IMG/VR virus record: IMGVR_UViG_3300020169_000026
Strand: one strand, 5' to 3'
Origin: a virus
DNA: 46,896 bases
Both the position numbers and the translations under genes were made by a program. The notes under the pieces were generated by a model. It was not told the DNA's origin. It ran no database searches and saw only the letters and a list, made by a program, of their open reading frames with translations. Positions 10,821 through 14,911 of this stretch are shown here, in pieces. Positions within the stretch are counted from its first letter, which is position 1. Each line of letters starts with the position of its first letter.

Positions 10821-12776
10821 ATGGCAGTAAAAATAAACGGCACTGAGGTAATTGACGACAGTAGAAACGTAGTAAACGTAGGTACTGTTGACGGTAGAGA
10901 TGTTTCTACTGATGGGTCTAAACTAGATAACGTATCTGCTAACGCAGACGTTACTGCCACAGCTTTACCTACAGCATTGACAGGTTTATCTACTAGTGCA
11001 TCTCCAGCATCTGACGACCTTATTGTGTCGTATGATACTTCTGCTGGTACTTGGAAAAAAGCTACTGTTACTGCCACTGCTCTTCAAGGTCAGAAGGGAC
11101 AGAAAGGTGAAGTTGGAGCTACTGGTTCTCAAGGTATTCAAGGTAATACTGGAGCAACTGGTAGTGCTGGATCTAACGGAGCTAAAGGTCAAAAGGGTGA
11201 GGTCGGTGTAACTGGTAATACAGGATCGACTGGAGCTAAAGGTCAAAAAGGTGAAGTTGGAGTTACAGGTAATACTGGGTCTACAGGTTCTACTGGTCAA
11301 AAAGGTCAGAAGGGCGAAATTGGAGCTACAGGAGCTACAGGTAGTGCTGGTTCTAACGGTTCTACTGGTCAAAAGGGTCAGAAGGGCGAGGTTGGCGCAC
11401 AAGGTATTCAAGGTAATGCTGGTAATACTGGATCGACTGGTTCCCAAGGTCAGAAAGGCCAAAAGGGAGAAGTTGGCTCAACTGGTGGTACAGGCTCAAC
11501 TGGACAAAAAGGACAGAAGGGTGAGGTAGGTAATACTGGCTCAACTGGCTCTACAGGTAATACAGGTTCGCAAGGACAAAAGGGACAGAAGGGTGAGGTA
11601 GGAGCTACGGGTTCTACAGGCTCAACTGGAAGTACTGGATCTCAAGGTCAGAAAGGCCAAAAGGGAGAAGTAGGAGCGCAAGGTAATACTGGTAATACTG
11701 GTAGTACAGGCTCAACTGGTTCTACTGGTCAGAAGGGTCAGAAGGGACAGACTGGATCTACTGGCGGTACTGGTTCAACTGGATCGACTGGACAGAAGGG
11801 ACAGAAGGGACAAACAGGTTCTACAGGCTCTACAGGTGGTACTGGTAGTACTGGTCAAAAAGGACAAAAGGGTGAGAGCTTCTCTGGAAGTGGTACTGGC
11901 GCAGTCCAGATACCAGCTGGTACAACAGCACAAAGACCCAGTAGCCCAGTAAATGGGGCATTCAGATATAACACTGAGAAATATGAAGGTGAGTTCTGGA
12001 GTCAAACTAAGAGTTTGTGGGTTGGTGCCAACCAAAAGCCTCCTTTTAATATTGAATATATAGTAGTAGCTGGTGGCGGCGGAGGTGGTTATCGAGGGTC
12101 ACGTTGGGCTGGCGGTGGCGGCGGTGGTGGTTATCGATCAAATGTATCAGGTGAATCTTCTGGTGGTGGTAACAGCGCAGAGAGTACACTACAGGCCGTT
12201 ACTGGAGATCAAATGACTGTAGTCGTCGGTAGCGGCGGTGTACCAGGGATTCAACCTAATGGTAGTTGGGATGGCGGAGATGGTAACAGTAGCTCTCTGA
12301 CACTTGGTTCTACAACTATAACCTCTCAAGGAGGCGGCGGTGGTGGCTCTGGTACTGGGCGTAGCGGTGGCTCTGGTGGTGGAGGTGTTAATGGAGCTGG
12401 TGGAGGTTCAGGTACTTCTGGTCAAGGTTATGCTGGGGGTGGAAGTACAGACCAAGGTTATGGAGGTGGCGGCGGTGGAGCAGGCGCGGCAGGCATTCAG
12501 AGATATGGCGGATCTGGTGTCCAAAGTAGTATAACTGGAACAGCAACATATTATGCTGGTGGGGGTTCTATGAACGGGTCAGGTTATGCAAATGGCGCAC
12601 AAGGTTATGGCGGTGGCGGTTATGCTAATTTCTCTGCTGGCGGTTTGACTGGTCTATCTGGTATTGTTGTAATTCGTTATGCTGGCACACCACAAGGTAC
12701 TGGTGGAACTCGGACTACATCAGGTGGATATACAACACACGTCTTTACTAGTTCTGGTACATTACAATTCGAATAA
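10821..12776 (+). CDS. Collagen-like fibre protein with a glycine-rich C-terminal domain
   Basis: 651 aa. It has an N-terminal VDGRDVSTDGSKLDNV box, 88 uninterrupted G-X-Y triplets, then a poly-Gly-rich domain ending GIVVIRY. Confidence 0.9.
   Translation: MAVKINGTEVIDDSRNVVNVGTVDGRDVSTDGSKLDNVSANADVTATALPTALTGLSTSASPASDDLIVSYDTSAGTWKKATVTATALQGQKGQKGEVGATGSQGIQGNTGATGSAGSNGAKGQKGEVGVTGNTGSTGAKGQKGEVGVTGNTGSTGSTGQKGQKGEIGATGATGSAGSNGSTGQKGQKGEVGAQGIQGNAGNTGSTGSQGQKGQKGEVGSTGGTGSTGQKGQKGEVGNTGSTGSTGNTGSQGQKGQKGEVGATGSTGSTGSTGSQGQKGQKGEVGAQGNTGNTGSTGSTGSTGQKGQKGQTGSTGGTGSTGSTGQKGQKGQTGSTGSTGGTGSTGQKGQKGESFSGSGTGAVQIPAGTTAQRPSSPVNGAFRYNTEKYEGEFWSQTKSLWVGANQKPPFNIEYIVVAGGGGGGYRGSRWAGGGGGGGYRSNVSGESSGGGNSAESTLQAVTGDQMTVVVGSGGVPGIQPNGSWDGGDGNSSSLTLGSTTITSQGGGGGGSGTGRSGGSGGGGVNGAGGGSGTSGQGYAGGGSTDQGYGGGGGGAGAAGIQRYGGSGVQSSITGTATYYAGGGSMNGSGYANGAQGYGGGGYANFSAGGLTGLSGIVVIRYAGTPQGTGGTRTTSGGYTTHVFTSSGTLQFE
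11088..11879 (+). repeat. Collagen triple-helix repeat region (88 G-X-Y triplets, 12 G-[Q/A]-K-G-Q-K units)
   Basis: Direct reading of the translation shows no proline, with every lysine in the Y position followed by Gly. The nucleotide-level repeats generate spurious ORFs in other frames. Confidence 0.95.
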
Positions 12777-12791
12777 GTTTAGAGGTAAATT

Positions 12792-13115
12792 ATGAAATAC
12801 TTTGCAAAAGTAAATAATGGAGTGGTACTGCGTGTAATTGTTGCAGAGCCTGAGTTCTTCAATACATTTGTTGATGACAGCGCAGGTGAGTGGATAGAAA
12901 CAAAAACGGATGGTACATTGCGTAAGCACTACGCTGGTATTGGATACTCCTACGATCAAACACTTGACGCATTTATACCTAAGAAACCATATTCTTCTTG
13001 GGTGTTAGATGAGGAAACTTGCCTGTGGGAAGCCCCTACCTCTATGCCTACTGGTACTGACACTCAATATGTCTGGAATGAAGAAACTAAGGCTTGGGAT
13101 ATAGTTGAAAAGTGA
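12792..13115 (+). CDS. Hypothetical protein, possible fibre chaperone or adaptor
   Basis: 107-aa ORF between the collagen-like gene and the modifying enzyme. It has a GAGG SD, and its stop overlaps the downstream GTG start. Confidence 0.6.
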   Translation: MKYFAKVNNGVVLRVIVAEPEFFNTFVDDSAGEWIETKTDGTLRKHYAGIGYSYDQTLDAFIPKKPYSSWVLDEETCLWEAPTSMPTGTDTQYVWNEETKAWDIVEK

Positions 13116-14911
13116 TAATCTATCAAATATCACTCCACGGATCAGCTTACGATGCACGTAATAAACAGTGGAGTGATGTATACTCTGAGACTGGCTGTAA
13201 GCCCCGTACAGGCTGGTTAGACCCTATTCACAGTAGGAGTATACTAAAAGGTGAGTTTGGATGCTCAGTGAGCCATCTGAGGGTCTGGGAGAAGATTGCA
13301 AACAGTAACTCTAATGGTATTATACTGGAAGAGGATGCAGTCTACGATAGAATAGATACTGATAAGGTGAATAGACTTCTTAATTCCCACGATAGTGTAT
13401 GGTTAGGTTACAGATGGAACGACATGGGCTATTGGTATAACTGCCATGCTTATGCAATTACTCCAGATACAGCAAGACTGTTGATACAAGACTTTAAGGA
13501 TAACATAATCCCAGTTGATGAATGGGTTCCTATGAAGCTAAAACATAAACAAAACTACTTCTATGAAGAAGAGGTCGTTACTCAAATCCCAAGGTCAACC
13601 CGACCAAGTACCATAGAGGAAGAAGATAGTCCGATGATAGACTCTAGTAAGATTAACATAATAACAGTAGCTACAGATGAAACTAAGATGTGGCCTCTAT
13701 CACAGTCATGCGACAAACATCAAATTAATCTAGTTAACCTTGGTAAAGGAGATAGCTGGAAGAGTGAGATGGAAGGATATGACGGTTTAAGAAAAGTAGA
13801 GCTAGTAAAGAACTTAGTAAAAGACTTAGCTAAAGATGAGATAGTCTTATTTGTCGATGGGTATGATACTTTCTTCACTGAAGGTTATGAGACGATAGTA
13901 CAAAGGTTCTTAGACTTTGATGTAGACATATTGTTTGGAGCAGAACAAGAATGCTGGCCTATAACAGATAACCACTTCTATAAAGAAAGTTGGATAGATG
14001 ATGGAACACCTTACAGGTATTTAAATAGTGGTTTGTATATAGGGTATGCAGGGGCAATAGATGAGTTCCTTAACTTACCAAGCACAGACGCTAAAGGTGA
14101 TGATCAACTCTATTGTCAAACAAGATACTTAAAACTAATAGATGGTACAGTAGAAACAGAGTATGCAAATAAAGTAGGATTAGACTACGAAGCATACATA
14201 TTCCAAAATCACGATACAGATATAAAGATAGTAAATGGTCAACTGTGGAATGACAGAACTAATTGTTGTGGTTGTATATATCATGGTAATGGAGGCAAGT
14301 CAGAGAAAGACTTCTTCTACAGTTTAGCAGAACAGTTTGGGTATAAAGAACTATCCTCTCCTATTACTAGGACAAGTAGAGATTTAAGCTATAAAGAAGT
14401 AGCTCAAGACTTGCTAGTTACAAAACTACTATCTGATAGTGAGTGTAAAGACTTAATAGCTAAGTCTGATGCTCTAGGTGGTTGGGGTAACCTAGACGGA
14501 GATAAGTTTCCAGCACAAGAGATAAGGCTTAAGAAGTTAGGTCTATGGAAAGAGTATGAAGCTCTCTGGAGAGATAGGCTATTTAAGATATGTGAGAAAC
14601 ATTGGAAGCCTGTAGAATATATGGGTCTACGTGATGCCTTTACTATGCGTTACGCTATGGACACTCAGAAGTCTTTAGGATTACATACAGACGCATCTCT
14701 TATAACTGGTAGTGTTAAATTAAACGACAACTATGAAGGTGCTACACTCTATTTCCCACGTCAGGACTTTACAAACCTAGATGTACCCGTTGGAAGTTGT
14801 ATACTCTTCCCTAGTCAAGTTACTCATGGTCATTATGTCGATGAGCTACAGTCTGGGGTTAAATATTCATTAACTATGTGGACATCCCGTTATGTGGGTG
14901 ACGAAAACTAG
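13112..14911 (+). CDS. Three-domain collagen-modifying enzyme: GT25 (COLGALT-like), LH3/PLOD-type glycosyltransferase and lysyl hydroxylase (2OG/Fe(II))
   Basis: GTG start. Residues 1-160 carry GT25 motifs (KGEFGCSVSHLRVWEKI, IILEEDAVY, CHAYAITPDTARLL). Residues 181-410 match the PLOD N-terminal GT domain block by block (IITVATDET, LGKGDSW, LFVDGYD, FGAEQECWP, RYLNSGLYIGYA, GDDQLY, LDYEAYIFQN, YHGNGGK). Residues 435-592 match the LH domain (LHTDAS, NYEGATLYF, THGHYVDEL, VKYSLTMW). Confidence 0.85.
   Translation: MIIYQISLHGSAYDARNKQWSDVYSETGCKPRTGWLDPIHSRSILKGEFGCSVSHLRVWEKIANSNSNGIILEEDAVYDRIDTDKVNRLLNSHDSVWLGYRWNDMGYWYNCHAYAITPDTARLLIQDFKDNIIPVDEWVPMKLKHKQNYFYEEEVVTQIPRSTRPSTIEEEDSPMIDSSKINIITVATDETKMWPLSQSCDKHQINLVNLGKGDSWKSEMEGYDGLRKVELVKNLVKDLAKDEIVLFVDGYDTFFTEGYETIVQRFLDFDVDILFGAEQECWPITDNHFYKESWIDDGTPYRYLNSGLYIGYAGAIDEFLNLPSTDAKGDDQLYCQTRYLKLIDGTVETEYANKVGLDYEAYIFQNHDTDIKIVNGQLWNDRTNCCGCIYHGNGGKSEKDFFYSLAEQFGYKELSSPITRTSRDLSYKEVAQDLLVTKLLSDSECKDLIAKSDALGGWGNLDGDKFPAQEIRLKKLGLWKEYEALWRDRLFKICEKHWKPVEYMGLRDAFTMRYAMDTQKSLGLHTDASLITGSVKLNDNYEGATLYFPRQDFTNLDVPVGSCILFPSQVTHGHYVDELQSGVKYSLTMWTSRYVGDEN

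Follow-up and report, generated by a model that had tools for sequence, protein, structure and literature searches.

A predicted three-domain phage enzyme for hydroxylation and glycosylation of collagen lysines, encoded beside a lysine-patterned collagen-like fiber

A stretch of viral DNA of 46,896 nucleotides (IMG/VR record IMGVR_UViG_3300020169_000026; the whole stretch is called the window below) encodes a collagen-like fiber protein in open reading frame (ORF) 10821..12776 and, shortly downstream, a predicted three-domain enzyme in ORF 13112..14911. On the basis of sequence comparison and structural modeling, we consider it probable that this enzyme hydroxylates, and then glycosylates, lysines of the neighboring fiber in the infected bacterium. 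The reading draws on homology, folds, conservation of catalytic residues, gene linkage, and co-variation between the enzyme set and the fiber, all observed here. An initial annotation, made from the DNA letters and their translations, had described ORF 13112..14911 as a GT25 domain, a PLOD-type glycosyltransferase (GT) domain, and a lysyl hydroxylase (LH)-type oxygenase domain in one chain; Pfam and sequence and profile searches of PDB agree with that assignment.

RESULTS

The enzyme ORF joins three modules related to collagen lysine-modifying enzymes

The enzyme and its domains are as follows (2OG, 2-oxoglutarate; aa, amino acids).

13112..14911, plus strand: three-domain collagen-lysine modification enzyme (predicted), 599 aa; GT25, PLOD-type GT, and lysyl hydroxylase.
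13112..13606, plus strand: GT25 domain, aa 1-165, like the catalytic GT2 domain of COLGALT1.
13637..14356, plus strand: PLOD/LH3-type GT-A domain, aa 176-415; Pfam PF25342.
14384..14911, plus strand: lysyl-hydroxylase-type 2OG/Fe(II) oxygenase domain, aa 425-599, with matches to LH3 and L230.

Pfam placed GT_PLOD (PF25342) at aa 179-395 (E = 3.4e-35; 121.9 bits, cutoff 27; profile positions 3-224 of 246) and Glyco_transf_25 (PF01755) in the N-terminal domain (E = 1.5e-10; 41.7 bits, cutoff 24), the latter in an alignment that spans aa 35-80 only. Family members align with the enzyme N terminus from residue 1 or 2. When the protein was searched against PDB with phmmer, every match at E < 0.01 was human LH3 or COLGALT1 or mimivirus R699 or L230, and LH3 was matched in two stretches, its GT domain and its LH domain. 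The GT25 domain matched COLGALT1 at 5e-9, with GE(L/F)GC-SH, EDD/EED, and PVDE aligned, versus E values of ∼0.03 to 0.2 for bacterial GT25 structures; the LH domain matched the LH domain of LH3 and L230 at 3e-5 each. At E < 1e-3, a profile built from 38 family sequences recovered just 12 distinct sequences from PDB, each belonging to LH3, R699, L230, or COLGALT1 (best E values of 2.2e-48, 5.3e-31, 9.3e-12, and 2.3e-9, respectively); by domain, it reached the LH3 GT domain at 5e-33 and the LH domains of LH3 and L230 at 4e-12 and 9e-12. The generic Pfam oxygenase model 2OG-FeII_Oxy_3 matched aa 519-591 under its gathering cutoff (E = 6.8e-4) and is too weak alone for an LH call, which was resolved by the PDB profile search and Foldseek. 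LH3 and L230 were the only PDB oxygenases matched by sequence, with alignments starting at aa 420-433; the N-terminal helical extension specific to LHs was found, and the domain resembles LHs more than prolyl hydroxylases or other 2OG oxygenases.

An AlphaFold2 model of the enzyme (mean predicted local distance difference test score [pLDDT], 84.5) shows three domains at high confidence, with linkers of low confidence between them at residues 165-175 and 416-422. The LH domain is β-rich (pLDDT, ∼80 to 93) and forms a double-stranded β-helix. Foldseek searches with the model returned LH3 at 8.5e-26, R699 at 5e-16, and COLGALT1 at 3.8e-8, the last over ∼190 to 220 alignment columns. The isolated LH3 GT domain (6wfv) gave a template modeling (TM) score of 0.81 and the L230 LH domain one of 0.74 to 0.76 (1.8e-11); prolyl 4-hydroxylases (P4Hs) scored lower than L230 (3e-7 or weaker; TM, ∼0.6). 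Comparison with COLGALT1, PLOD3 (LH3), and L230, the check proposed in the initial annotation, thus recovered all three folds. The accessory (AC) domain of LH3 is absent, a linker of ∼10 to 20 residues standing between the GT and LH domains, and so is the GT1 domain of COLGALT1, the GT25 domain beginning at residue 1. As judged from sequence and model, the enzyme is a bare fusion of three catalytic modules without noncatalytic accessory domains, and each of its domains is most closely related to collagen lysine-modifying enzymes.

Catalytic and cofactor ligands are invariant across the family

In the GT25 domain, C51, E73, and D75 correspond to COLGALT1 C412, E435, and D437. C412 belongs to the uridine pocket of COLGALT1, E435 and D437 to an unusual E-D-D metal motif, and mutation of any of the three abolishes activity (PMC12003778). 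In HMMER alignments of the PLOD-type GT domain, D249, Y251, and D252 fall on LH3 D112, Y114, and D115, W282 on W145, D330 and D331 on D190 and D191, and H391 on H253. D249, D252, and H391 are thereby counterparts of the LH3 Mn ligands, and Y251 and W282 of its UDP-stacking aromatic residues; the R699 equivalents of D249 and D252 are D83 and D86 (PMC12279948). In the LH domain, H525, D527, and H574 fall on the LH3 Fe(II) triad H667, D669, and H719. The DGYD motif at residues 249-252, the H525/D527/H574 triad, and NYEGA in place of LH3 DYEGG all read as the initial annotation had claimed.

The metal and cofactor ligands of all three domains, together with K584 in the LH domain, are invariant in 38 of 38 family sequences at 55 to 97% identity, and the same ligands are kept in cyanophage enzymes that align over their full length at ∼41% identity; the catalytic residues are therefore conserved on proper alignment. 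Also invariant are D330, D331, and N393, which align with LH3 D190, D191, and N255, residues that we take to be on the acceptor side.

Two substitutions bear on whether the protein is an enzyme at all: the COLGALT1 EDD motif reads EED (E73-E74-D75), and K584 occupies the site of the 2OG-binding R729 of LH3. Lysine is a common 2OG-binding residue in the 2OG oxygenase superfamily, and K584, being basic like R729, could plausibly serve in its place. Were the similarity a relic, with at least one domain catalytically dead and the protein serving as a fiber chaperone or scaffold, these substitutions and the subcutoff Pfam 2OG score would be in keeping, and COLGALT1 GT1 and the LH3 AC domain are precedents for noncatalytic domains. 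The ligands of all three domains are nevertheless invariant in the 38 sequences and persist at ∼41% identity in cyanophages, and the phage protein lacks exactly those domains that are noncatalytic in the animal enzymes. A degenerate scaffold was rejected on the invariant catalytic residues and the gene context; we regard it as highly improbable.

The adjacent fiber carries lysine in Y positions only

The predicted substrate and its parts are as follows.

10821..12776, plus strand: collagen-like fiber protein, predicted substrate, 651 aa; N-terminal anchor region, collagen domain, and glycine-rich C-terminal domain.
11088..11879, plus strand: collagen domain, aa 90-353; 88 G-X-Y triplets without interruption.
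12048..12680, plus strand: glycine-rich C-terminal domain, aa 410-620; Pfam PF21722 (Gly_rich_2).

The Pfam Collagen model matches the fiber ORF at 63.4 bits (E = 1.6e-17; cutoff, 27.2). The initial annotation had described 88 uninterrupted, proline-free G-X-Y triplets at 11088..11879, with 24 lysines, all in Y, arranged as 12 G-[Q/A]-K-G-Q-K units. A recount bears this out exactly: the longest run is 88 triplets with a proline count of 0, every one of the 24 lysines is at Y and none at X, and they make up 12 units (10 GQKGQK and 2 GAKGQK), followed in most cases by GE. The chance that all 24 lysines would fall in Y, given 176 nonglycine positions, is 9.7e-9, and 12 exact adjacent lysine pairs arose in 0 of 200,000 random placements. 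The DNA of the collagen domain has repeat periods of 54 to 72 nucleotides because GQKGQKGEV blocks recur. Threonine occupies 41 of the 88 Y positions. Proline and hydroxyproline are absent from the collagen domain; judging by composition, a triple helix without them would need to draw its stability from other residues or from the modification.

The C-terminal 299 residues of the fiber contain 94 glycines, and Gly_rich_2 matches slightly under its cutoff (23.8 bits against 24.3; E = 5.3e-5); this glycine-rich domain is probably the distal or receptor-binding part of the fiber. PHROG matches are to tail fiber and collagen-like minor tail families (best, 4e-54), and the counterpart in roseophage CRP-6 is gp60, annotated "putative tail fiber protein."

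The enzyme belongs to a marine phage family linked to lysine-rich fibers

At 90% identity and E ≤ 1e-5, protein searches gave 651 clusters, most of them from marine contigs of phage size; at 50% identity and E ≤ 1e-30 the clusters numbered 112, and at E ≤ 1e-3 there were 2,512 representative homologs. The family is large, marine, and essentially phage borne, and its members are unnamed or mislabeled; the three-domain protein is present, unannotated, in isolates such as CRP-6 and several Synechococcus myophages.

The initial annotation had proposed a survey for co-occurrence of the enzyme with G-X-K-rich ORFs, and the outcome was strongly positive. A same-strand collagen-like ORF lies just upstream of the enzyme in 60 of 80 viral loci (denoted by L numbers below), and 14 of the 20 loci without one have less than 1.2 kb of upstream sequence. 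In all 60 fibers (43 unique), lysine is confined to Y, in GxKGxK pairs, and summed over them Y holds 1,481 lysines and X holds 0, in the stereotyped context G-[Q/A]-K-G-Q-K-G-E. For comparison, we used 120 viral loci chosen solely for having ≥12 consecutive Gly-x-x triplets, which yielded 64 long collagen ORFs. The Lys-in-Y fraction of the enzyme-linked fibers was 0.18 to 0.39, against a median of 0 in these controls; the lowest enzyme-linked value, 0.18, was attained by 9 of the 64 control ORFs. Domain hidden Markov models (HMMs) run on the short flanks of lysine-rich controls (L167, L128, L085, L108, L188, and others) detected no enzyme domain. One such contig, L167, encodes a 2,235-aa protein (2654-9359) with 284 G-X-Y triplets, 161 lysines in Y, and 70 GxKGxK units; the three enzyme domains were not detectable in its available flank.

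More distant members show the same pattern. In the T4-like cyanophages S-CAM9 and S-PRM1, a ∼41%-identical enzyme gene follows three giant tail fiber genes, and in the nearest fiber (1,830 aa) the collagen domain runs to 59 triplets and contains 22 to 23 lysines, all in Y. Contig L208 divides the pathway between two genes, the first encoding GT25 (170 aa) and the second GT_PLOD plus LH (417 aa), and the upstream fiber (570 aa) has 26 lysines, every one of them in Y and none in X. The cyanophage and L208 contexts are clearly independent agreement with the Lys-in-Y pattern.

The superfamily is modular in other ways as well: some proteins combine only GT_PLOD and LH, some GT25 and GT_PLOD without LH, and forms of 900 to 1,190 aa carry extra OGFOD2-like, Anp1, or GT2 domains (proteins P0121, P0167, P0180, P0188, P0205, and P0239 represent these variants). 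In the fiber beside a 63%-identical enzyme at L035 (6067-7221), continuous G-X-Y periodicity is lost (…GADSIVKGQKGEVGADSIV…) and KGQKGE repeats are kept; from this sequence, it may be the motif that is conserved and not the triple helix.

A scan of 185,579 species genomes, which used degenerate patterns from the LH domain alone and so had limited sensitivity, returned only five contigs from metagenome-assembled or single-amplified genomes, L203 to L207, assigned to Pseudomonadales, Sansalvadorimonas, Gammaproteobacteria, a Prochlorococcus single-amplified genome, and an unclassified bacterium. These hits probably stem from phage DNA that was co-binned or present through infection, not from cellular homologs.

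An additional oxygenase accompanies proline-rich fibers

A P4H-type oxygenase (PF13640; 177 to 203 aa) lies beside the enzyme in 15 of 15 loci whose fibers are rich in proline at X, cyanophages included, and is absent from 47 of 47 loci with proline-poor fibers, the present window among them. In the podophage loci examined, its gene is directly upstream of the three-domain gene. L208, whose fiber has 44 prolines in X, fits the pattern in having a P4H-type gene. Examples (strand not stated; all PF13640) are as follows.

L046:9471-10004: P4H-type oxygenase.
L081:18704-19869: P4H-type oxygenase.
L208:3344-3892: P4H-type oxygenase.

The association suggests X-position prolyl hydroxylation of phage fibers. 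The enzyme set thus tracks the amino acid composition of the fiber, which points to the fiber as the substrate and would otherwise be hard to explain.

The gene that directly follows that of the enzyme is often one for an FkbM-type methyltransferase (PF05050; L046:11802-12350, L024 to L030, and L044 to L073), which is absent from the present window. The 875-aa protein P0122 has a TylF/Methyltransf_24 domain N-terminal to GT25 and GT_PLOD in the same chain. Adjacent or fused methyltransferases suggest O-methylated glycans in some lineages.

The genes lie in a structural operon of a CRP-6-like podophage

The source phage is a marine podophage, a relative of roseophage CRP-6. A megablast search of the locus against GenBank phages gave a sole match, to 474 nucleotides of CRP-6; nucleotide-level relatives are scarce among isolates, so a protein-level search was required. 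The fiber and enzyme genes are flanked by portal and head genes, and the structural module to which they belong is syntenic with that of CRP-6; the enzyme gene is two genes downstream of the fiber in this late structural operon. Two further genes belong to the context.

12792..13115, plus strand: small ORF between fiber and enzyme, 107 aa; phrog_7759 (function unknown), 6.9e-26.
9526..10794, plus strand: neighboring noncollagen fiber protein, 422 aa; PHROG tail fiber families.

The small ORF is the single gene that had been described as separating fiber and enzyme; a Pfam search of it gave zero matches. Its TGA stop overlaps the GTG start of the enzyme ORF (GTGA), which suggests translational coupling of the two. 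Genes around the enzyme are tightly packed or overlapping, and no terminator-like site was found on the plus strand across 9.0 to 17.5 kb.

This location bears on a different role for the enzyme, that of an auxiliary metabolic gene (AMG) or host-takeover gene that remodels the lipopolysaccharide (LPS) or some other molecule of the host and might thereby, for instance, prevent superinfection. Database labels lean that way ([quoted passage not shown]; PHROG 61, "2OG-Fe(II) oxygenase," in the moron/AMG category), and the Pfam description of the GT25 family takes in LPS glycosyltransferases. Against it stand the position of the gene, in the structural module between fiber and head genes in podophages and beside tail fiber genes in myophages, and the far weaker match to bacterial GT25 structures than to COLGALT1 given above; an LPS role would also leave the LH-type domain, the strict Lys-in-Y pattern, and the co-variation of enzyme and fiber unexplained. 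An LPS-modifying AMG was rejected on context and conservation, and we give it very little credence.

The 422-aa fiber protein and the collagen-like fiber have in common a VDGRD-x3-DG-x-LDNV motif, internal in the former and N-terminal in the latter, and the collagen fibers of L068 and L208 begin with the same N terminus, MA[IV]KING-EVIDDSRN…; the N-terminal motif may be a shared attachment module. Directly after the enzyme, ORF 14921-16186 (plus strand) encodes an acidic, Thr/Ser-rich protein of 421 aa with about eight loose repeats of a [QS]E[ED]ETF motif. Pfam and PHROG searches of it gave no match; its position is kept in CRP-6 (gp57, hypothetical).

A predicted order of modification and the points that weigh against it

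In the proposed mechanism, the enzyme would act late in infection, in the host cytoplasm, on unfolded chains before the fiber trimerizes. The C-terminal 2OG/Fe(II) domain would convert Y-position lysine in G-[Q/A]-K-G-Q-K-G-E to 5-hydroxylysine; the N-terminal GT25 domain, using Mn2+ and a UDP-hexose, would then place the first sugar on the new hydroxyl, and the central PLOD-type GT domain would add the second. Up to 24 disaccharide-hydroxylysine (Hyl) sites per chain, or 72 per trimer, would result, after which the fiber would trimerize. By analogy with the animal enzymes, the sugars are most likely galactose and then glucose, Glc-Gal-Hyl being the likeliest guess. The purpose, again by analogy, is likely to be to stabilize or hydrate the proline-free triple helix, to resist proteases, or to contact the host surface. 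Hydroxylation and diglycosylation of the phage's own fiber had been proposed from the start; folds, residues, and co-occurrence support the proposal as a prediction, and the checks intended to refute it, run computationally, gave no result that did so.

Several points weigh against hydroxylation and glycosylation of the fiber as described. The modification, its order and extent, the sugars, and the purpose are inferred. At the level of the enzyme, the points are the short Glyco_transf_25 alignment, the subcutoff 2OG-FeII_Oxy_3 match, the EED motif, and K584, invariant in the family, in place of LH3 R729. As to linkage, five loci (L014, L021, L044, L049, and L050) have no collagen-like run in 1.7 to 2.6 kb of available upstream sequence, so that either adjacency is not universal or the fiber is farther off; the Mann-Whitney p value of 1e-18 for the Lys-in-Y difference is overstated, as related loci are not independent and represent about three or four lineages. 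Thr-in-Y is also enriched in the enzyme-linked fibers (median, 0.46 versus 0.18 in controls). As to the sugars, mimivirus L230 makes Glc-Hyl, not Gal-Hyl (PMC9546862), while R699 extends Gal-Hyl; Glc-Gal-Hyl is therefore just a best guess.

The last two points lead to another reading, in which the LH domain acts on fiber lysines and the GT domains put one different sugar on Hyl, glycosylate Y-position threonine, or modify another virion protein. As a hydroxylysyl glucosyltransferase, L230 is a precedent for a single sugar on Hyl (PMC9546862), Bacillus BclA is one for threonine O-glycosylation, threonine fills 41 of the 88 Y positions of the fiber as it is enriched in Y of its relatives, and the methyltransferases fused or adjacent in some relatives point to lineage-specific glycan chemistry. 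Both GT domains are, however, closest to Hyl-specific or Gal-Hyl-specific enzymes, with nothing else in PDB below E = 1e-3; D330, D331, and N393 align with presumed acceptor-side residues of LH3; and the GT25, GT_PLOD, and LH modules are kept together, whether fused or split. Furthermore, 26 of the 64 control collagen ORFs reach a Thr-in-Y fraction of ≥0.26 although their sampled flanks contain no enzyme; it is Lys-in-Y that discriminates. Threonine glycosylation as the main target was set aside on the frequency of Thr-in-Y in these controls, and we judge this other reading of the GT domains, taken as a whole, to be unlikely. Hydroxylation of the fiber lysines followed by addition of two sugars remains the reading we prefer.

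DISCUSSION

Full-text literature searches found no described bacteriophage lysyl hydroxylase, collagen GT, or Hyl-glycosylated fiber, nor does the paper on the CRP-6 genome refer to any. UniProt automatically names a few homologs [quoted passage not shown]; with the Pfam and PHROG coverage, these names mean that the homology was latent in databases. The initial annotation knew of no described three-domain version in a bacteriophage. The literature bears that out, with the qualification that the architecture is not unique to this phage and belongs to a large marine family.

Collagen-type Hyl glycosylation is viewed as an animal trait, and mimivirus as a curiosity. A broader proposal, which we offer as doubtful, is that phages, and not animals or giant viruses, hold a minimal and possibly ancestral toolkit for collagen lysine, made of bare GT25, PLOD-type GT, and LH modules that are fused, split, or recombined beside the fibers on which they act. 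If it were true, the architectures of LH3, COLGALT, and L230/R655/R699 would have arisen by gain of accessory domains, and Hyl-linked glycosylation would be a widespread, unrecognized modification of marine phage virions and no eukaryotic specialty. On the reading preferred here, part of the puzzling cyanophage "2OG-Fe(II) oxygenase AMG" repertoire (PHROG 61) would be reread as tail fiber maturation enzymes and not as metabolic genes. The pairing of lysine with the LH/GT fusion and of proline with an extra P4H-type oxygenase provides a testable code for predicting fiber modifications, and, as CRP-6 is in culture, the prediction is directly testable on virions. Escherichia coli cannot so far be used to produce recombinant collagen in glycosylated form, partly owing to poor expression of human collagen GTs (PMC9546862); the phage enzyme is a compact, single-gene candidate tool native to bacteria.

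Among known systems, Bacillus BclA, with its threonine O-glycosylation, and the P4Hs of B. anthracis and PBCV-1 resemble the phage locus in co-encoding 2OG oxygenases or GTs with a collagen-like protein (PMC8968730). Iyer and Aravind (2010) predicted bacterial operons of hydroxylases and sulfotransferases acting on collagen-like or tail-collar proteins, and noted tandem cyanophage dioxygenases; the pathway seen here was not described (PMC2938197). All of these systems differ from the phage one in targeting Pro, Asp/Asn, or Thr with other enzyme families, and they have no lysyl hydroxylase, no GT25 plus PLOD-type GT, and no Hyl-linked glycans.

The human LH3 (PLOD3)-GLT25D1 (COLGALT1) complex is homologous in all three catalytic modules. 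The PLOD-type GT domain is ∼26% identical to that of LH3 (TM of 0.81 to 6wfv), the HxD...H triad is kept, the phage GT25 domain has its counterpart in the catalytic GT2 domain of COLGALT1, with the unusual E-x-D metal motif included in the alignment, and the substrate motif is in both cases a Y-position lysine followed by glycine. The architecture differs: the human complex is a hetero-oligomer of 738-aa and 622-aa proteins, whereas the phage enzyme is one polypeptide of 599 aa, in the order GT25, PLOD-type GT, LH, without AC and GT1 domains. It also has Lys for R729 and EED for EDD, lacks a signal peptide and an endoplasmic reticulum context, and would work in the bacterial cytoplasm on a proline-free fiber.

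Mimivirus, like the phage, encodes collagen-like proteins together with homologs of all three modules, and in both the virus itself supplies a Lys-in-Y collagen-like substrate along with the modifying enzymes. L230 combines LH and Hyl glucosyltransferase activities and R699 is a Gal-Hyl glucosyltransferase, as established experimentally (PMC9546862, PMC12279948). Searched with the phage family profile, R699 scores 5e-31 and L230 9e-12; R655, a putative GT25 protein, is weak (phmmer, 0.03). Mimivirus differs as a giant virus of a eukaryote with the activities spread over three separate, larger proteins, of which R699 keeps an accessory domain that the phage enzyme lacks. Its genes are not described as adjoining those of their substrates, whereas the phage enzyme gene stands beside its predicted substrate gene in a structural operon. 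We predict from these comparisons that the phage system works like the LH3/COLGALT1 complex and the mimivirus trio, which it resembles in its catalytic features and not in its architecture.

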